Shown here in pieces: positions 4,092 through 19,416 of a stretch of DNA of 19,416 nt. Position numbers and translations under genes: made by a program. The notes below the pieces were generated by a model, which did no database searches, was not told the origin of the DNA, and saw only the letters and a program-made list of their open reading frames with translations. The number at the start of each line of letters is the position of its first letter. Position 1 is the first letter of the stretch. This stretch comes from a virus: the IMG/VR virus record IMGVR_UViG_3300045988_139298; one strand, written 5' to 3'.

Positions 4092-5025
4092 CTTCTTTTT
4101 TAATTGTTAGGTCGTCTTTAAAATCCGTAAGGCTTGTATCACTGTCTAATTCAATCAATTTTAAGATGTCCTCAAAGTCTTCATATGGTGCAAACTCAAC
4201 ACTAGCGTTTAAATTAAATTTCTTATTTAATTCATCAATGGCTTTTTTACGCTCACTAAGCCAAATATTACGAGAAGCAATAACCTGTTGATTGTTAGCG
4301 TTGACCTCATCCGATACTAGCCTTTCTTTTTTGTCCATGTTGGCATTTTCAATGCCTAATAGAGTCATGCATTCACGCAAAATCGCTTGCTTCATGCCGT
4401 GCAATTCGTCCGCAATAAAAGGTGCGTTTGTTTGTAACACGTTAACGTCTTCCGTTCTGAATCCTTTTGAAGTAAAGATCGTTTGAACGCCTTGTAAAAT
4501 CTTTTTCATGAACACTTTGAATTGCTGTAACATACGCTTATCACCTGTAATGATGTACGGTGTCCATTGCATGGTCAAATTTTGGTCCATCGTTCGACTT
4601 GTTAAAGCTAGTTTCTTAGCGAAAAAATTTAAGTATGGGAAGATACCCACATATAAAGGACTGTTCTTCATAATTACACATTCATTACTTGATAAATTCT
4701 TTTTAACAAGTGGACTTGTTGATACTGTATGATATTCGGTTGGCATTTGATAGTGGTTGAGTTTACCGCCTAGTGTGATTTCACTACAAATTAAACCTAA
4801 TCTTTCATCATCATAAAAACCAATGTAACCACGTGTTTGTAAAACATATTCTAAATAGAATGTATTAATGGACTCCGGCAAACCTTTATATTTAAACATG
4901 TTTAAACTTAGCATTTGTAAATACGTATAATAAATAAAATCCGCCTCTCCATTATTCATAGTAGCGACATCAACCGCGTTTCTACAATAATCTGTGAACG
5001 AGCTCGTATCATTTAATAAATCCAT
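4084..5025 (-). CDS. Portal / upper collar connector protein, phi29 gp10-like
   Basis: 313 aa versus about 309 aa for phi29 gp10. The segment LLGIENANMDKKERLVSDEVNAN closely matches my recollection of phi29 [23 protein letters not shown]. The N-terminal YLQ...LP..IN..FLE motif also corresponds. Confidence 0.9.
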   Translation of the reverse strand: MDLLNDTSSFTDYCRNAVDVATMNNGEADFIYYTYLQMLSLNMFKYKGLPESINTFYLEYVLQTRGYIGFYDDERLGLICSEITLGGKLNHYQMPTEYHTVSTSPLVKKNLSSNECVIMKNSPLYVGIFPYLNFFAKKLALTSRTMDQNLTMQWTPYIITGDKRMLQQFKVFMKKILQGVQTIFTSKGFRTEDVNVLQTNAPFIADELHGMKQAILRECMTLLGIENANMDKKERLVSDEVNANNQQVIASRNIWLSERKKAIDELNKKFNLNASVEFAPYEDFEDILKLIELDSDTSLTDFKDDLTIKKEGD

Positions 5026-5087: not shown

Positions 5088-7283
5088 TTAATGTACTTTT
5101 CTTTCTTTATAGTTTCCGTATCTGTCGCATTGCGTATACGAGTATCTTTCACCGTTATTTTGAGAATAATCACCAACATTTTTTGTATGCCATAGTGTTA
5201 TTCCATTATTAAATACACGCTTGATTTTTTCTAAGTCGTTCGGGTCGATGTTTGTACCTTTGATATTACATTTTACAGTTTGGATGTAGTTCCATGATAC
5301 TTTAGATCGTAAATTAGGATAGTCAATTGTATTTGTGGCATATCCTCGCATGTTCCATATTTTTTCTAATTTCTGTTTGTATTCGTCTGTAGGTCGATAA
5401 ACATATAATACGAATGTGTTTAAATCTAGTGCTATTTGTCGCATTAAATCATTCGAGCCGGTTACAATACTGTCAGCTGTTGCCTGTGCGTCATGGATAC
5501 GTGCGTTGTAACTATCCATAGCGTTTTGTATATTTGTTTGATTTTGGTACTGTGTTGTTAACTGTCTCAATTGATTTCCAATTGCTGTAGATTGACTGTT
5601 AGCACTCGCCTGTGCGTTTGCGTTTGCAAGTGCGTTTGCGTTTTGCATGTTGGTTTGTTTTGTGTTGATTTGGTTTTGCATAGCTGTTTGCCCAATACCT
5701 AAACCAGCTCCAACCAAACTACCAACAGCACCACCAATATTACCGGTTAACGCGCTGGCAATACCACCACTTAAACCGCCTATAGCACTTATACTAGCGT
5801 TTATCATGTTCGATTTATTGTGTAAATCGTTTAAATTACTCGCTAAATTTGCATTACGTGCAGTAACACTTAAATTTAAGTTATTTTGTAAGCTTGTTTG
5901 TGCGCTTAACGCATTACCGGTTGCGCTGGCTATAGCTGAATTTGTTTCGTTTGATCGTCTAATATTGGATAATCCTACGTTCATAGAGTTACGTGATGAT
6001 TGTAGCATTAAAGCGGTCGTATCACTAATAATAGGTAAGCTTGTTTCATACTGAGATTCAAACGAATTATCTAAATTTATTAAGCTTGAATAAGAATCAT
6101 TTGATTTTGTCACTTTGTAATTTAATGGCATTATATTCATTTTTGAGCTGTTGGGTGACCCCACACAGATAAATTGGGCATTTTTCATATCCTCCCATAA
6201 CTCATTTTTAAAAGCTTTTGTTGTTCCATTATTATCGCTAATAACTAAATAACTATAAGGATACGTATATATTTTAGTAAATTCACTAAATCCAATAAAA
6301 GCCGGTATATTATATACCTGTGTTTTTGAGAATGCGTTTAAATCATTTTCTAGCATGTCATTCATGGTCTTAGCTTTATAAGTTAAAATTTGATAATCTC
6401 CTTGTTGCTCACCACTAAAGCAATCACGTTTAATAACAACTTGCCCACTTTCAACAACTAAGCCCGGTATTGAATTGGTCACAATAATAGATACACATTT
6501 ACCGACTAATTTTTCATTTTTTCGTATTGCGTCTAAAACGGCTGATAATCCTGAGATTGTTACAGTTGCACCGCTTGCACTGCCAATTTTTAAAGATTTT
6601 ATATCATTTCCCGTGTACCTATTAAAAGGGAATATATAATAATTAACTTGACTTGGTGCACCTAACTGTGCGTTTGTGTAGCTGTCTTTTCCGGACATAT
6701 CACATGTCATACCTATTACAGCAAAACTAGTATTTATGTTAGGGTCTATTAAATATTGTTTATCTGAAATTAAATCTGTGCCAACTTCTATATTTTCGGG
6801 CTGTGTATTAATACAAGGTCGTTGTACACCATCACCGGTATCATAATATTGTGGTCTATGTTCATATGCGATATATGACTCCATAAAGTTATTTTCAATT
6901 TCAAACCGCCAAGTTTGTATCACATCCGTTTCAAAACTAATACTAGTCGCATTATCATTTAAGTAACCTAAACTTGTAATAAAACAATAAATCCATTTTG
7001 CTTTATTACCTGTATTTCCATTTTGATAAATCAAATAATTGTATAAACGTAGATCATCATAAACACCCGGTACGACTACTGTACCATCTTTTCTTTGATA
7101 CGTGTAATTTTCAAAAACAATATGATCGTAATTATTAATGAAAAAATTAAATTGTTTTTCGGGTGTATCGAATGCACCCCAAAACGTGTTATTCATTGCG
7201 TCAATTTCTAACCCCTTTAACAAATAAATTTTACTTTGTGGTGTAAATTGACTGTTAACAACTCCTATACTCATTTTAATCAA
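5088..7283 (-). CDS. Tail knob / major distal tail protein, phi29 gp9-like, with an enlarged central insertion
   Basis: The N-terminal segment YNYLIYQNGNTGNKAKWIYCFITSLGYLNDNATSISFETDVIQTWRFEIENNFMESYIAYEH parallels my recollection of phi29 gp9 ([54 protein letters not shown]). It lies upstream of the portal gene, as in phi29. Confidence 0.88.
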   Translation of the reverse strand: MIKMSIGVVNSQFTPQSKIYLLKGLEIDAMNNTFWGAFDTPEKQFNFFINNYDHIVFENYTYQRKDGTVVVPGVYDDLRLYNYLIYQNGNTGNKAKWIYCFITSLGYLNDNATSISFETDVIQTWRFEIENNFMESYIAYEHRPQYYDTGDGVQRPCINTQPENIEVGTDLISDKQYLIDPNINTSFAVIGMTCDMSGKDSYTNAQLGAPSQVNYYIFPFNRYTGNDIKSLKIGSASGATVTISGLSAVLDAIRKNEKLVGKCVSIIVTNSIPGLVVESGQVVIKRDCFSGEQQGDYQILTYKAKTMNDMLENDLNAFSKTQVYNIPAFIGFSEFTKIYTYPYSYLVISDNNGTTKAFKNELWEDMKNAQFICVGSPNSSKMNIMPLNYKVTKSNDSYSSLINLDNSFESQYETSLPIISDTTALMLQSSRNSMNVGLSNIRRSNETNSAIASATGNALSAQTSLQNNLNLSVTARNANLASNLNDLHNKSNMINASISAIGGLSGGIASALTGNIGGAVGSLVGAGLGIGQTAMQNQINTKQTNMQNANALANANAQASANSQSTAIGNQLRQLTTQYQNQTNIQNAMDSYNARIHDAQATADSIVTGSNDLMRQIALDLNTFVLYVYRPTDEYKQKLEKIWNMRGYATNTIDYPNLRSKVSWNYIQTVKCNIKGTNIDPNDLEKIKRVFNNGITLWHTKNVGDYSQNNGERYSYTQCDRYGNYKERKVH

Positions 7284-7306
7284 CTCCTTTTATTTTATAT
7301 TAGTAA

Positions 7307-7332
7307 AAAATAGTTGAATGTTCAACTATTTT
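7307..7332 (-). terminator. Intrinsic terminator after the tail hydrolase gene (copy 1 of an identical 28-bp cassette)
   Basis: The hairpin is aaaatagttgaa-tg-ttcaactatttt, followed by a T-run on the - strand. The gene's stop codon (7331-7333) is inside the stem. A TTGAAC in the hairpin lies 17 nt upstream of TAATAT. Confidence 0.65.
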
Positions 7333-8533
7333 ATTTATCTTTGATATAGTCATATATCTCACGTGCTTTAGTTCCTCTTTGAGGTTGGTTCGGGTCGGCT
7401 GGTCTTTCGTAGTTGGCTAAAAATTCTATGGCTAATGTATAAGGGTCAGCAGTTGATTTTGAAAAGCTCGCAAAACTTTCGGGGTATGTTGCTGTAGCAA
7501 TCCATTGTTGATTATTTTCCATTTCCCATTGAATTCGTTCGCATTCTCCTTGTCCAAACTTTGAAACATCCGGATAATATCCTTTTTCTTTTAGCCAGTC
7601 AATTATTTTAGTCCATGGCGTCCATTGTACTAACCCGTAACCACGTGAGGCAACCGGTTGTGCAAAAGGTACATCACCCTCCCATCGGTTCGGGTTAACA
7701 GTTGACTCAAAATAGGAGTTACCTAATATACCAGCAACCGCGTTTGCGGTCCAACCTTTAGCCTTAAAAAATTGCCAAAATGCTAACCAATTTTGTTTGG
7801 ACTCATCTTCTGTAAGTGGTCGCGTATTATTAATATCACCGGGAATAAACCACTCACACGTTGGTGTTGGCGGTTCGGGTTTGATCTCTTCTTTTGTTTT
7901 ATAAAATCCAAAATCAATACCTAAACCATCTAACATAAAATAGTGTTTAGTGTATTTGTATGAGGGTTCGGGCGTTGGAGGCTCGCCCCCTTCAAACGTT
8001 TGCCACGCTTGACCGTATCCATTTACAATATTTGTATCATTTACATAAAATACATTATTCGGTAACTCTGAACCACTTAGCGCGTAGCATTGATTCCCAT
8101 ATCTACATGTAACACCATAGTAGACGAGTCCGGCGTTTTGTGTAAAAGTTTGGTCGATGTGACAGTGGTCACCGGTCGCCATTCCAGCCGTACCCGTATG
8201 GTAAATTAGATCACCTTGTTTATATTGTGTAGCGGTTGGTGGGTTGGGGTCATGTGTAAAACTCACAGTGACATAGCTTAACCCATTTGGTGTTAGTACG
8301 GGATTGTCTGAGCTGTAAGCGCGTGTATTTCCGGAGTTGTCACTATAGGATAAGTGGCAACTAAACGGAGCATACACGGGTACGCGGACCTGCCCATTAA
8401 TTGCATTATCAAAAGGATGACCACAACAATGTGACACTGCCGTTGGACTTGACCATTGCGTGATATTCATTGTTTCCATAGGAAATAAACACACTTCATG
8501 GCCATCATGTGCTAACTTTTGACCGGCTTTCAT
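7331..8533 (-). CDS. Tail-associated peptidoglycan hydrolase: N-terminal M23 peptidase plus C-terminal phage tail lysozyme-like domain
   Basis: The HxH motif is GDHCHID (aa 121-127), with an upstream GHPFD. The C-terminal half has AGILGNSYFES...RGYGLVQWT, typical of phage tail lysozyme domains. Two Pro-rich linkers (EPPTPEP, PEPPTPT) separate the halves. Confidence 0.85.
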   Translation of the reverse strand: MKAGQKLAHDGHEVCLFPMETMNITQWSSPTAVSHCCGHPFDNAINGQVRVPVYAPFSCHLSYSDNSGNTRAYSSDNPVLTPNGLSYVTVSFTHDPNPPTATQYKQGDLIYHTGTAGMATGDHCHIDQTFTQNAGLVYYGVTCRYGNQCYALSGSELPNNVFYVNDTNIVNGYGQAWQTFEGGEPPTPEPSYKYTKHYFMLDGLGIDFGFYKTKEEIKPEPPTPTCEWFIPGDINNTRPLTEDESKQNWLAFWQFFKAKGWTANAVAGILGNSYFESTVNPNRWEGDVPFAQPVASRGYGLVQWTPWTKIIDWLKEKGYYPDVSKFGQGECERIQWEMENNQQWIATATYPESFASFSKSTADPYTLAIEFLANYERPADPNQPQRGTKAREIYDYIKDK

Positions 8534-8745
8534 AAATTTAATTCCTCCTCTAATTCTACTAATTCTCTTAGCTTATCTTTACATATATTATAGCGCTCAT
8601 AATCCACATCTTTTAAAATATGCATACATTGCATATAAAACTCAATATAAAAATAAACACTTAATCCTTCCGGTAAGCTATAAGGAATATCTTCCGGATT
8701 TTTCATCTTATATATACTTGATAATTCGCATTCTTTTTTATCCAT
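8530..8745 (-). CDS. Small protein, unknown function (71 aa)
   Basis: SD AGGAGG precedes the ATG. There is a 4-nt ATGA-type overlap with the tail hydrolase start, suggesting translational coupling. No motif recognised. Confidence 0.6.
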   Translation of the reverse strand: MDKKECELSSIYKMKNPEDIPYSLPEGLSVYFYIEFYMQCMHILKDVDYERYNICKDKLRELVELEEELNL

Positions 8746-8774
8746 AATTAATACCTCCTACTATATAATAAAAT

Positions 8775-8798
8775 AAAACTAGCTTATGAGCTAGTTTT
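8775..8798 (-). terminator. Intrinsic terminator after the 93-aa ORF
   Basis: The stem is aaaactagc / gctagtttt and encloses the stop codon at 8784-8786. It is followed by TTTTATTTTATT on the - strand. Confidence 0.6.
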
Positions 8799-9065
8799 TT
8801 CTAAAATAATGGAAATACACGCGTCAACATAGCATTGCCCTTTAATAGGCGTATCTGTTTTAAGCTTAGCGAAATATGGTAAATATTTCATAGCTAATTG
8901 AGTTCTCGCGTTTTGTAATTCATCTTTTGTTGTTGTAACAGTCACAGTATCCAACATTAAATAAACATAATCTATTAATTCACTTGTGGTTGGATCTGTG
9001 TTTGGTTGTATTAATTTACACATGTTATTATTTAATAATGATCTCTTAACTGTATATCCTTCCAA
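8784..9065 (-). CDS. Unknown protein (93 aa from a TTG start); possibly the C-terminal part of a readthrough or split fibre gene
   Basis: The ORF-track start is TTG 9065, with AGAGG 6 nt upstream. The same frame stays open upstream to the TAA at 9198-9200 that ends the 194-aa ORF. Confidence 0.5.
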   Translation of the reverse strand: MEGYTVKRSLLNNNMCKLIQPNTDPTTSELIDYVYLMLDTVTVTTTKDELQNARTQLAMKYLPYFAKLKTDTPIKGQCYVDACISIILEKTSS

Positions 9066-9197
9066 ATCTAAACCTCTAACAAAAGTAGTATTAGCATAAT
9101 AAGGAGCAGTTGGTAAATAACTAAAATTATATTTAAAATAATAATCTAATTTCTTAATTGTTTTATCTTCGTTTTCAGTTGTTGTATCTGTTGATAA

Positions 9198-9782
9198 TTA
9201 AATGATCGTAGGTTTTAATTTTTCCCATTCCTCATTGAATTTATTTGTTGTTGTTTCTTCCACCAGTGTAATAACTTGCGGTTTTAAAATATCCCATTGT
9301 TTTTTAAATTCGGCGTCTGTTGTGTCCTGTGCCAATTTAATAACAACCGGTTTTAATTCTTCCCATGATTTATTGAATGTTTCAATTGTTAAATTTGTTA
9401 CAAGCTCAATAACTTGTGGTTTTAGAATTGACCATTTATAGTCGAATTCCTCATCTGTCCATTCTTTCGTTGCCTGTTCTAATAATGGCACTATCGTATT
9501 CCATGCCTCAATTGTTTCATTCATAGCCGTTACTAAGGTATAAACGTATCCTTGTAAATAGTTTAAACACTGATAAACATTCATACCCGTATTAAATGCA
9601 CTCACGTATTGCTGGGCTAAATTCTTACCGCTTAACTTTAAAGGCTCGAACTCCGGTAAAAAGTTATTGATCTCAAATTCTTCATGTAACTCTGAACCGG
9701 AAATACTTTCGCTTTCACTCGTAGATGTTTCACTTGAATTTAAAATATTTTGCTTTATTTTATCAAAATCCATATTATTCAC
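9198..9782 (-). CDS. Fibre-like structural protein, short paralog (194 aa), with 23-aa repeats
   Basis: The N-terminal FLPEFEPLKLSGKNLAQQYVSAFNTGMNVYQCLNYLQG is nearly identical to the 297-aa paralog. It has 3.4 repeats of W-x-x-LKP-x-VI-x-L-xxx-TT (W117, W140, W163, W186). It overlaps the holin stop. Confidence 0.75.
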   Translation of the reverse strand: MNNMDFDKIKQNILNSSETSTSESESISGSELHEEFEINNFLPEFEPLKLSGKNLAQQYVSAFNTGMNVYQCLNYLQGYVYTLVTAMNETIEAWNTIVPLLEQATKEWTDEEFDYKWSILKPQVIELVTNLTIETFNKSWEELKPVVIKLAQDTTDAEFKKQWDILKPQVITLVEETTTNKFNEEWEKLKPTII

Positions 9783-10142: not shown

Positions 10143-10170
10143 AAAAATAGTTGAATGTTCAACTATTTTT
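10143..10170 (-). terminator. Intrinsic terminator after the 239-aa gene (copy 2 of the identical 28-bp cassette)
   Basis: The sequence aaaaaatagttgaatgttcaactatttt is identical to 7305-7332. The stop codon (10170-10172) abuts the stem. On the - strand, TTGAAC, 17 nt and TATTAT follow, ahead of the holin SD. Confidence 0.65.
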
Positions 10171-10889
10171 TAACTGCCTATTTTTCCTTGTCCTAACCAT
10201 TTTCCATTTTTACGAATTCGGCTTGTACCTTGGTTTTCTTTTCCTACTTTATCGTAACTATATTTTGCGATGTCCTTCCATGAGTTCGATTTTCGTATCT
10301 TTAAAAATCCACTGTCTTTATTCAAGGATTTTAACACGCCACTTTTACGAATACCCCACGGTCTAAAGTCGGGAATAACTTGTTTAATGTTGTAAATATT
10401 CGCGTATGGAAAAGTAACATAATCACCTTGTAATTCAATTTTAACGTGCGTTGTGTCATTTGATAATTGGATAAATTTACTCCATTGACTCGCTCGTGCC
10501 GTACCATCCCAGCCTGGCAAATAGTTTAATGGCATTTGACCCGTATGTGTAAATATTTTTTCTCTTAATAATTGTGTCCATGAGCCTTGATTGTCTGTTG
10601 ACTTAGACACAATAATAAAATAGTTATACGGTGTGGAAGTATCACCAACATAATACCCATCCGCCACATACTGTTGAGCGTCTGTTATAGCATACCCAAC
10701 TAAATCTAATATAAACGTTACGCCATAATTTCCATTATCTGTAAAGTTAATTCCTTTACCATATCCGGATGCGTGCGCCGTTGCTAGGGGTGCTCCAAAC
10801 GGTCCGGTGTTGTCTGGTGAACCACCTAAAACAACATTCGCGTATGGTCCGGTGTTATCGTAAGCTCCATAAAAACTATGCCATGCCAT
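10170..10889 (-). CDS. Putative tail fibre / receptor-binding accessory protein (239 aa)
   Basis: It is translationally coupled to the upstream fibre gene through a TAATG overlap at 10889. It has a DNTGP[YF] duplication at the N-terminus and three basic [KR]-I-R-K...W motifs at the C-terminus. Function is inferred from context only. Confidence 0.4.
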   Translation of the reverse strand: MAWHSFYGAYDNTGPYANVVLGGSPDNTGPFGAPLATAHASGYGKGINFTDNGNYGVTFILDLVGYAITDAQQYVADGYYVGDTSTPYNYFIIVSKSTDNQGSWTQLLREKIFTHTGQMPLNYLPGWDGTARASQWSKFIQLSNDTTHVKIELQGDYVTFPYANIYNIKQVIPDFRPWGIRKSGVLKSLNKDSGFLKIRKSNSWKDIAKYSYDKVGKENQGTSRIRKNGKWLGQGKIGS

Positions 10890-11782
10890 TATACACCACC
10901 AGCCAAATCATTCTCAGTGCTTCCGCTATTTGTACGAATGTATGAATCACCGTCAACACTTCCACCAAAGATATTAATATTACCGGTTGCGATGTTTCTA
11001 CCGTCTGTCATATGACCATCGAAAATAGTTGCACCCGTTTGTGTCCAAGCACCACTGTTCTTTAAGTTTGTTAACAAGATAGATAAATCGTCATACATTT
11101 TACCAATTTTAGAATCTTGATTATCAATATATTGATTGATCGTATTATTCACATATTGCGTTAACTCCGGTTTTAATTCTTCCCATGATTGGTTGAATTG
11201 ATTGATTGTTGTTTGTTTCGTCAACTCAATAACTTGAGGTTTTAATTCTTCCCATGATTCATTGAATTGATTGATTGTTGTTTGTTTCGTCAACTCAATA
11301 ACTTGAGGTTTTAATTCTTCCCATGATTCATTGAATTGATTGATTGTTGTTTGTTTCGTCAACTCAATAACTTGAGGTTTTAATTCCTCCCATTTCTCAT
11401 TGAATTGATTGATTGTTGTTTGTTTCGTCAACTCAATCACTTGAGGCTTTAACTCCTCCCAGTGTTTATCGAATTCACTTTTAGACAGTTCAATACAATA
11501 TTTAATCATGTCCTCGATATTTTTATTCCATTTTTTAACAACATCGTTAACAGCCTTTACCAGCCAACCAATATGACCTTGTAAATAATTTAAACATTGG
11601 TAAATATTCATACCCGTATTAAATTCACTCACATAATTTTGAGCTAAATTTTTACCGCTTAACTTTACCTCGTCAAACTTAGGCAAAAAATTATCAATAT
11701 CTATTTTGATTTCTTGGTTTTGCTCAAATTGTTCTTTAATTGTTTGGCTTGCTGATTGTTTCTTTTTAGTTTTTCTTAACAT
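10889..11782 (-). CDS. Fibre-like structural protein, long paralog (297 aa), with four near-identical 23-aa repeats
   Basis: It shares the N-terminal about 50-aa module with the 194-aa ORF. WEELKPQVIELTKQTTINQFNE[KS] occurs four times, followed by a degenerate fifth repeat and a Gly/Asn-rich C-terminal domain. It occupies the phi29 head-fibre position after the capsid gene, but I saw no resemblance to my recollection of gp8.5. Confidence 0.75.
   Translation of the reverse strand: MLRKTKKKQSASQTIKEQFEQNQEIKIDIDNFLPKFDEVKLSGKNLAQNYVSEFNTGMNIYQCLNYLQGHIGWLVKAVNDVVKKWNKNIEDMIKYCIELSKSEFDKHWEELKPQVIELTKQTTINQFNEKWEELKPQVIELTKQTTINQFNESWEELKPQVIELTKQTTINQFNESWEELKPQVIELTKQTTINQFNQSWEELKPELTQYVNNTINQYIDNQDSKIGKMYDDLSILLTNLKNSGAWTQTGATIFDGHMTDGRNIATGNINIFGGSVDGDSYIRTNSGSTENDLAGGV
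11186..11461. repeat. Tandem 69-bp coding repeat, four full copies (a degenerate fifth extends to about 11126)
   Basis: The string tcaactcaat recurs at 11221, 11290, 11359 and 11428, a 69-bp period. The middle copies appear identical at the DNA level. The array encodes aa W108-S199 of the 297-aa protein. Confidence 0.9.
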
Positions 11783-18755: not shown

Positions 18756-19013
18756 TTAATCCATACGGATTTGACCACTAGCATACTTAAGTAATTCATC
18801 TGATAGATCAGCAAACTGTAAGACTAAATAATCAAAATCACTAACTGTAACATCTTCGTCTTTTAAAGCGTTAAGTATAATAATGTGCATTGAATTAATA
18901 TAATTAACAATTAACACATTTTTAAATTCATCTTCATCCACAACCTTAATGGACTCTATAGCATTATTGTAAATATTCAATAGAACACTATCATATACTT
19001 CTTTTAATGTCAT
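18756..19013 (-). CDS. Strongly acidic small early protein (85 aa)
   Basis: First ORF after the right-ITR promoter and SD, with its ATG inside the ITR. By hand count it has 16 Asp/Glu against 6 Lys/Arg. No motif recognised. Confidence 0.7.
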   Translation of the reverse strand: MTLKEVYDSVLLNIYNNAIESIKVVDEDEFKNVLIVNYINSMHIIILNALKDEDVTVSDFDYLVLQFADLSDELLKYASGQIRMD

Positions 19014-19416
19014 TTTCTTAAGCCCTCCTTCTTTTCACCTATAGTATAACACACCTATTCTAGAACACAAGTGTTTTTATAATTTCACATAATTCACAAC
19101 CGAGCCGTGTGGGTCAATGTTTCACGTGGAACATTGTTATATGGTGGTGTGTGGTGGTGTGTCGTGTGATGGTATGCTATGTGGTGCGTGAGCGGAGCTA
19201 GGACGAGTGGAGCGAGACCACGCCGAGCGGAGCGAGGCAAGCCGAGACATGCGGAGCATGTCGAGGCAGTGCCGAACAGAGTGAGACCACACCGAGCGAA
19301 GCGAGGCGGTGTTGTATGGTGTTAGTTAGTGTTAACTAATGCTATCCTATGTGTGTTCATGTTCTGTGAACATGTGTACGTCAATGGGGTACAGGGTCAT
19401 GCTGACACTCTTTTTT
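19010..19416. repeat. Right inverted terminal repeat, 407 bp
   Basis: Exact reverse complement of 1-407. It ends ...CTCTTTTTT-3'. Confidence 0.97.
19043..19070 (-). promoter_or_regulatory. Identical inward-facing promoter inside the right ITR
   Basis: This is the mirror copy of 347-374. It drives the ATG at 19013 through the same SD and 5' UTR. Confidence 0.6.

Follow-up and report, generated by a model that had tools for sequence, protein, structure and literature searches.

What does an in-frame stop codon in the middle of a viral fibre gene mean: two protein isoforms, two genes, a broken gene or an error? The question is raised by IMG/VR virus record IMGVR_UViG_3300045988_139298, a stretch of 19,416 nucleotides (nt) that we call the window throughout. 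On its minus strand, from 9782 to 8784, lies a putative modular accessory tail-fibre or tailspike gene, which probably encodes a receptor-binding protein and which is interrupted by one TAA. We consider it most likely (with a probability of roughly 80%) that this is a truncated and decaying allele of a dispensable accessory fibre gene, whose product would be a stub of 191 amino acids (aa) and whose 3' part would be an untranslated remnant; the figure partly takes in the question of whether the loss was neutral or selected.

The minus strand from 9782 to 8784 translates as 333 codons with a single internal stop, the TAA at 9200–9198, as an earlier reading of this DNA made from its letters alone (the sequence-only reading) had stated. 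The frame reads '...EKLKPTII', then the stop, then 'LSTDTTTENEDKTIKKLDYYFKYNFSYLPTAPYYANTTFVRGLD', and then 'LEGYTVKRS...EKTSS*'; the nucleotide context of the stop is ACGATCATT TAA TTATCAACA. Downstream of the stop there is a bridge of 44 codons (9197–9066), which was said to contain no ATG or GTG and which in fact contains no TTG either. The next start-type codon is the TTG at 9065–9063, from which a mechanical open reading frame (ORF) of 93 aa (8784–9065, minus strand) extends. A random frame would stay open over 44 codons with p ∼0.03 at the window's G+C content of 33.2% (simple arithmetic). Peptides encoded after the stop, in bridge and remnant, include LSTDTTTENEDK, LDYYFK and SLLNNNMCK.

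The stop falls in the last of four 23-aa repeats (9180–9434, minus strand; R1 9434–9366, R2 9365–9297, R3 9296–9228 and R4 9227–9180), at position 10 of the unit, where the three preceding repeats have E126, K149 and T172 and where codon 195 is the stop; this register is the one first proposed. R4 is interrupted first by the stop and then by a deletion, described below; orthologues carry four to more than eight further repeats. The ORF that ends at the stop had been taken to be 194 aa long. Its end holds, but its start is most likely ATG 9773 rather than GTG 9782: the ATG has a Shine–Dalgarno (SD) sequence, AGAGGG, 8 nt upstream and is also the start that gene-calling programs chose in sister contigs, and the GTG falls within the last part of the holin gene. 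The resulting 191-aa ORF (9201–9773, minus strand; hereafter the stub) comprises an N-terminal virion-anchor domain and three and a half W-x-x-L-K-P repeats.

The stop is genuine. Four independent ENA/Logan human-gut assemblies (L034–L037: ERZ27305859; ERZ918382, whose record name carries ERR911994; ERZ28638779; and ERR3450961), which come from different studies and samples and one of which is labelled human gut metagenome, are 99.87–99.97% identical to the window over the aligned 7.4–7.6 kb. They differ from it there by 2–10 single-nucleotide polymorphisms (SNPs; repeat region of the paralogous fibre gene included), some of them private. All four carry the same TAA, the same flanks and the same deletion junction, and the single difference in the 999 nt of the frame is a non-synonymous SNP at 9368. 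The allele is present in at least five samples, and since the same TAA is found in independent assemblies with private SNPs, it is fixed in a viable, circulating, near-clonal lineage.

At the position of the stop, 19 orthologous loci have CAA (in the context 'TIIQLST') and the four near-clonal contigs have TAA. The orthologous codon, which the sequence-only reading had suggested comparing among relatives, is therefore a sense codon, and the stop arose by a single C>T transition (CAA>TAA, replacing glutamine). A one-nucleotide nonsense mutation had been among the explanations offered for the stop, and that part stands; its supposed origin from GAA or AAA does not.

A second lesion, overlooked in the sequence-only reading although the proposed frame runs across it, is an in-frame internal deletion with its junction at 9176–9180 (minus strand), six codons downstream of the stop and with 2–5 nt of microhomology. 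In BLAST comparisons the window is short by ∼1,680 nt (560 codons) relative to the 800–900-aa orthologues of the L001 type, and the matching segments abut at the junction (position 4324 of L001 corresponds to 9176 of the window, and 6000 to 9180). By alignment, it is short by 384 nt (128 codons) relative to L005, an orthologue of 453 aa. The deletion took the remaining repeats, a pectate-lyase beta-helix and the segment 'TVENNVSLxKxxxxxYYVL', which holds the first two strands ('ENNVSLxK' and 'YYVL') of a C-terminal all-beta module. What remains downstream is the 3' part of this module, 131 codons (393 nt; 8787–9179, minus strand) without its first two strands, and the 93-aa ORF covers only the last five of the nine strands. 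An intact short form exists in nature: L067 encodes 337 aa, with the window's anchor and its three and a half repeats leading straight into a complete module. Judged by the modelled fold, the conceptual 332-aa product of the window would be a damaged version of this architecture. Exact-pattern scans for the stop and the junction gave no matches in viral_contigs and in both metagenome_contigs scans, so these scans yielded no 'deletion without stop' intermediate.

The part of the frame beyond the stop is nevertheless conserved coding sequence. Its 137 residues match 46 database proteins and 32 IMG/VR loci, and the match starts nearly always at query residue 7; residues 7–137 of bridge plus ORF are conserved as one protein module, in the 32 IMG/VR loci and in ∼30 of the database proteins, with T7, E8, K16, D18, Y20, Y27, P32 and Y34 invariant within the bridge. 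Whether 9066–9197 is conserved at the protein level was another comparison put forward earlier, and these eight residues answer it in the affirmative. Each of the IMG/VR loci has the module at the C-terminal end of a continuous ORF that is much longer. The C-terminus had also been supposed to be a distinct domain, and in an AlphaFold (AF2) model of the intact homologue P0005 it is indeed one nine-strand all-beta domain, of which the segment deleted from the window forms the first two strands. The mean predicted local distance difference test score (pLDDT) of this model is 82.8, including the disordered first 25 residues, with block means of ∼90 or more over most of the domain. The module model has no fold match in the PDB (template modelling score, TM, ≤0.33), and its sole match in BFVD is a homologous 'Pectate lyase' of 815 aa from a gut podovirus.

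The intact orthologue begins with an anchor and continues with 23-aa helical repeats, which vary in number, in most cases a beta-helix of the pectate-lyase type, and the ∼140-aa nine-strand module. The beta-helix, absent by deletion from the window allele, is recognized in orthologues by weak matches to PF12708 and by the source name 'Pectate lyase' (full-length orthologues also bear, surely wrongly, the source name 'DNA sulfur modification protein DndD'). The stub shares 94–98% amino-acid identity with the N-termini of intact orthologues (337–961 aa); its own AF2 model is all-helical with a pLDDT of 43, too poor for a fold search. Neither Pfam nor PHROGs has a family for the stub or the remnant, and solved structures gave only spurious matches to OspA repeats. 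The ∼100-aa N-terminal domain is also found in a paralogue in the window (297 aa, 55% identical to the stub), and the same anchor occurs on fibres of related phages with other distal modules (T4 Gp10_C or a 146-aa tip, with the beta module here). A conserved anchor with alternative distal modules is the usual design of modular receptor-binding proteins.

We propose that the allele arose in two steps. A CAA>TAA nonsense mutation in repeat 4 would have come first, and an in-frame deletion at a microhomology six codons further on would have followed and eliminated what was left of the shaft, together with the beta-helix and strands 1 and 2 of the module. Translation would end at 9198 and yield the stub (anchor plus three and a half repeats), probably as the sole product, and the 393 nt after the stop would remain untranslated. 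The remnant would still be open because it is in the native frame, because the deletion happened to keep that frame (a 1-in-3 chance) and because the lesions are recent; its 3' end was probably retained because the operon terminator lies there. The phage would stay viable and circulate between people, presumably by means of an intact paralogous fibre pair (the 297-aa protein, with its homologous anchor, and a 239-aa partner), which every near-clonal contig carries and which likely explains why the broken gene would be dispensable.

Sister lineages have had the same gene disrupted independently. In L045, whose background is only 90.5% nt-identical to the window, TAA occupies the same codon, and 549 open codons follow without a deletion. 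Synonymous differences from the window lie less than 10 nt from the stop, and each of the two genomes is nearer to CAA genomes than to the other, which points to parallel mutation (the nearest intact relative available for L045 is 91% identical and thus uninformative on relaxed selection downstream of the L045 stop). At Gln159 CAA has become TAA in both L043 and L070, which carry different deletions; Trp160 has changed from TGG to TAG in L071, where the 661 codons that follow are intact; the frame shifts by −1 at an A6 run in L072; and out-of-frame or multiple deletions are found in L044/L069, L039/L040 and L115. Downstream deletions are present in three of the five nonsense alleles examined, and two of six deletions keep the frame, as chance predicts; these proportions fit a sequence of nonsense first and decay afterwards, and explain why the frame in the window looks continuous. 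The N-terminal products fall into two clusters with 52 members, and nearly all of the ∼30 listed are truncated (133–201 aa), with at least ten kinds of end and several of them on contigs of 17–20 kb.

Three candidates for further independent split genes (P0013/L033, L041 and L042) turned out to be artefacts of N-runs in scaffolds. In L115 the gene remnant, ∼500 nt upstream of position 4501, has been shrunk by several deletions to ∼490 nt. In a fibre gene of another clade, that of L141, the Trp of 'FNIEW' is replaced by an in-frame stop, ∼925 nt upstream of position 4501; this fibre (∼295 aa) looks Gp10_C-type, judged by protein length alone.

Protein-search hit lists over-represent fragments: full-length orthologues of 786–887 aa, some of them cluster representatives, are in the collection and were not returned, so we rejected these lists as a census. 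Two samples that were retrieved independently of the gene's own C-terminus set bounds on how common such disruptions are. With the N-terminus as the query, 23 out of 25 IMG/VR loci have one intact ORF (337–961 aa); with the neighbouring 71-aa gene as the query, 58 out of 78 loci are intact, three are disrupted and 17 belong to a sister clade in which the fibre is encoded by two genes.

Broken alleles may also travel. L044 and L069 are 93% identical overall and share the same out-of-frame junction ('KKQ|KYR*') in a 300-nt tract (3012–3311 of L044) that is only 1–2% diverged, with flanks diverged by 5–9%; a second near-identical tract covers the 239-aa gene. From these alignments, short-tract recombination appears to move fibre alleles, broken ones included, between lineages. 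The stubs of the two loci differ by 32 synonymous and two non-synonymous changes, and in the remnant both of the two differences are non-synonymous (very few sites).

Several observations weigh against simple decay. With only three of 78 loci disrupted in the unbiased census, loss is recurrent, not common. The window lineage is too clonal for a ratio of non-synonymous to synonymous substitution rates (dN/dS) on the remnant (one SNP in 999 nt, and none in the remnant), the dispensability of the gene is deduced from the intact paralogue, and the UAA may be read through at a low level. Moreover, the use of the same codon in a second lineage, and the clustering of lesions at codons 157–192, may reflect selection or a mutable site and not neutral decay.

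The last point bears on the alternative that survives best, which we nevertheless regard as unlikely: that the truncation is adaptive, a contingency switch in which loss of the distal depolymerase and tip is selected and the stub is kept as a functional virion component. The trigger could be a change in the host surface polysaccharide; nonsense mutations at CAA and TGG codons and slippage in A-runs would serve as recurrent, potentially reversible off-switches that lie shortly past the anchor and a few repeats and leave the downstream cassette intact, and off-alleles would spread between diverged genomes by short-tract recombination. The gene would then act as a population-level on/off switch for the depolymerase tail fibre, made irreversible in the window by the later deletion. 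The lesions that recur in parallel at Gln159, at Trp160, at Gln192 and in two A-runs, in several haplotypes each, are in keeping with such a switch, as are the ∼550–660 intact codons left downstream in L045, L071 and L072, the occurrence of the window allele in at least five samples, the low-divergence tract around the L044/L069 junction (which suggests horizontal spread of the allele) and the 32:2 ratio of synonymous to non-synonymous differences in their stubs. However, the clustering at codons 157–192 may be a retrieval artefact (long proteins were not returned), and the 32:2 ratio may reflect the history before truncation. Runs of A5–A6 are short for true phase variation, L039/L040 and L115 have lost most of the stub too, and the three disrupted loci among 78 also speak against a switch.

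Programmed or leaky readthrough of the ochre codon, which would give functional isoforms of 191 and 332 aa and which the sequence-only reading had listed among its explanations, fares much worse and is very improbable. The frame does stay open for 138 codons past the stop and is homologous there to a conserved domain, and L045 combines TAA at the same codon with an intact extension of 549 codons. But relatives do not share the stop: apart from the near-clonal lineage, just one unrelated contig, L045, has TAA, 19 orthologues have the sense codon CAA, and both TAA-bearing lineages resemble CAA-bearing genomes more than they resemble one another. In Escherichia coli and Bacillus subtilis, a U after UAA makes for strong termination, and the base after the internal stop is T (UAA-U). 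The 151 nt spanning the stop (mostly downstream) fold at −6.7 kcal/mol, with z = +1.5 versus shuffles, i.e. they are less structured, and ARAGORN found no tRNA genes, and so no suppressor tRNA, in the window. The extension lacks the first two strands of its domain, and the frameshifts and out-of-frame deletions of other lineages are beyond rescue by readthrough. The known parallel is the A1 protein of phage Qbeta, where a virion protein likewise gains a distinct domain from a long open extension behind an in-frame stop. The Qbeta A1 stop, however, is a conserved leaky UGA; the one here is a non-conserved UAA-U that is sense in orthologues, and the extension is truncated.

Somewhat less probable again is that the locus holds two functional genes, the stub and a 93-aa protein separately initiated at TTG 9065. 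An AGAGG lies 7 nt upstream of the TTG, the paralogous pair (297 + 239 aa) also consists of two genes, and genuine two-gene fibres exist in the 17-locus sister clade. However, the TTG and its AGAGG are also found in identical context inside the intact single-ORF genes of L004 and L028/L054, so the two were inherited as coding sequence and do not make a new start (TTA is the codon in 102 of the 119 L-D-L-x-G-Y-type motifs in the loci, about half of them in the neighbouring 239-aa gene). The 93 aa hold just five of the nine strands of one compact domain, and the 132-nt gap after the stop leaves no coupling. We judge that the 93-aa TTG ORF is not a gene.

The sister clade illustrates what a true split looks like. 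Its genomes are 16–17 kb long, and its first gene encodes an anchor and a coiled coil (∼187 aa, ending in '...ASEGGI'), followed by 'GAAGGAGGTATT TAA ATG' and, with no change of frame, a tip protein of 146 aa (MYTLKSNN...). This arrangement was found in 17 loci (L078, L080, L081, L083, L087, L113, L120, L122, L125, L129, L131, L132, L135, L137, L139, L148 and L152), located ∼1 kb upstream of position 4501 (in L152, upstream of 3945). The window resembles this clade in that an anchor-plus-shaft protein of ∼190 aa ends at a TAA with tip sequence in the same frame. The clade, however, has a perfect SD (GAAGGAGG) and an ATG directly past the stop; in the window the gap is 132 nt, these signals are missing and the domain is a fragment. 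A true split thus shows signals of functional splitting that the window lacks. In L080, a tandem duplication extends across the two-gene fibre junction.

A sequencing or assembly artefact, the remaining explanation offered earlier, is refuted: nothing speaks for it except that the starting data are a single contig, and both TAA and junction recur in four assemblies of other projects with private SNPs of their own. Least credible of all is a reassignment of TAA to Gln, which could be likened to code 15 (TAG>Gln) of some human-gut phages (PMC9523058) in that the stop replaces a Gln codon in a gut phage, here and in L043 and L070, but which would concern TAA and not TAG, would affect one gene only, would lack a suppressor tRNA gene, is refuted by the use of TAA as the main terminator of the window (16 of 28 genes, against eight TAG and four TGA, and including the conserved end of the fibre gene itself) and leaves the TAG at a Trp codon and the frameshifts of other lineages unaccounted for.

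Among known systems, the truncated gene is best compared with the phi29 gp12 appendage and other podophage receptor-binding proteins. It has a similar late-operon position, by genes for gp13-like, gp9-like, connector and collar proteins; its intact orthologues likewise join a beta-helix of the pectate-lyase type to an N-terminal anchor and a C-terminal module; and the anchor of the window type is common to alternative distal modules (beta module, Gp10_C or 146-aa tip). On the other hand, it has no sequence match to gp12 or to a solved structure, its C-terminal module has no fold match in the PDB, its shaft of 23-aa helical repeats has no counterpart in gp12, and the window allele is without a beta-helix. 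By its position and the beta-helix of its orthologues, the gene may work like a gp12-type appendage; no homology to gp12 was found.

For the loss itself there is a precedent in the head fibre of phi29 (gp8.5), which is dispensable: fibreless gp8.5 mutants have likewise lost a non-essential fibre by point mutation and are viable. The loss described here differs in being natural, repeated and caused by many kinds of lesion, and in affecting a gene in the tail-fibre and not the head-fibre position. Mapping of the gp8.5 gene appears among the references listed in PMC11476376.

If the stub is what remains of a decaying gene, the locus should be annotated as one ORF of 191 aa (ATG 9773) with a gene remnant at 9179–8787, and with neither a readthrough protein nor a 93-aa gene. 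A small, widely distributed phi29-like phage of the human gut would then circulate without a depolymerase-type fibre, and natural populations would have lost a modular receptor-binding gene repeatedly, through lesions of different kinds. In an otherwise ordinary decay, only the repeated, parallel truncation is of mild interest. If the loss is selected, it would offer a tractable natural system for the shedding or swapping of receptor-binding modules by gut phages as host surface glycans change.

The paralogous fibre pair lies intact at 10170–11782 on the minus strand. Its 297-aa gene (10889–11782) contains a 69-nt (23-aa) tandem repeat at 11169–11461 (4.2 copies, 95% identity), whose copy number varies among near-clonal genomes: the protein has 297 aa in the window and 274 aa in L034, L038, L044 and L071. 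A common 'LDLxGY' motif made the 239-aa partner a candidate homologue of the C-terminal module, which we rejected (hhalign probability 0.5%).

At the end of the truncated gene, an intrinsic-terminator-like hairpin (AAAACTAGCTCATAAGCTAGTTTT plus a T-run; 8765–8798, minus strand) overlaps the last codons, 'KTSS*'. The end '...LEKTSS*ASFILLY' is kept in almost every lineage, those with just 45% identity in the module included, and every deletion variant retains the 3' end of the gene; the overlapping terminator probably explains both.

The window is an uncultivated phi29-like podophage from the human gut. It has a perfect 407-bp inverted terminal repeat (ITR; 1–407 and 19010–19416) and is thus a complete linear genome of 19,416 bp; the ITR of phi29 is 6 bp (PMC11476376). 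Both terminal genes have their SD and ATG inside the ITR (404.. on the plus strand and ..19013 on the minus strand) and therefore share identical promoter, ribosome-binding-site and start sequences. The gene set is phi29-like: protein-primed DNA polymerase B, terminal protein, Phi29-type capsid, connector, gp9-like tail knob, gp13-like lysin, holin and packaging ATPase. The capsid protein is at most 35% identical to those of phi29-like phages of Enterococcus, Bacillus and Clostridium, and megablast and tblastn searches of GenBank phages with the region around the stop gave no matches; close relatives are abundant in human-gut metagenome assemblies and in IMG/VR. The truncated gene sits in the late structural operon, with the holin gene on one side and the gp13-like, gp9-like and connector genes on the other. 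Its ATG (9773–9771) begins 1 nt past the holin stop (9777–9775), so holin and fibre are probably translationally coupled. Unlike in the phi29 gene order, the holin gene is placed between the two fibre loci of the window.

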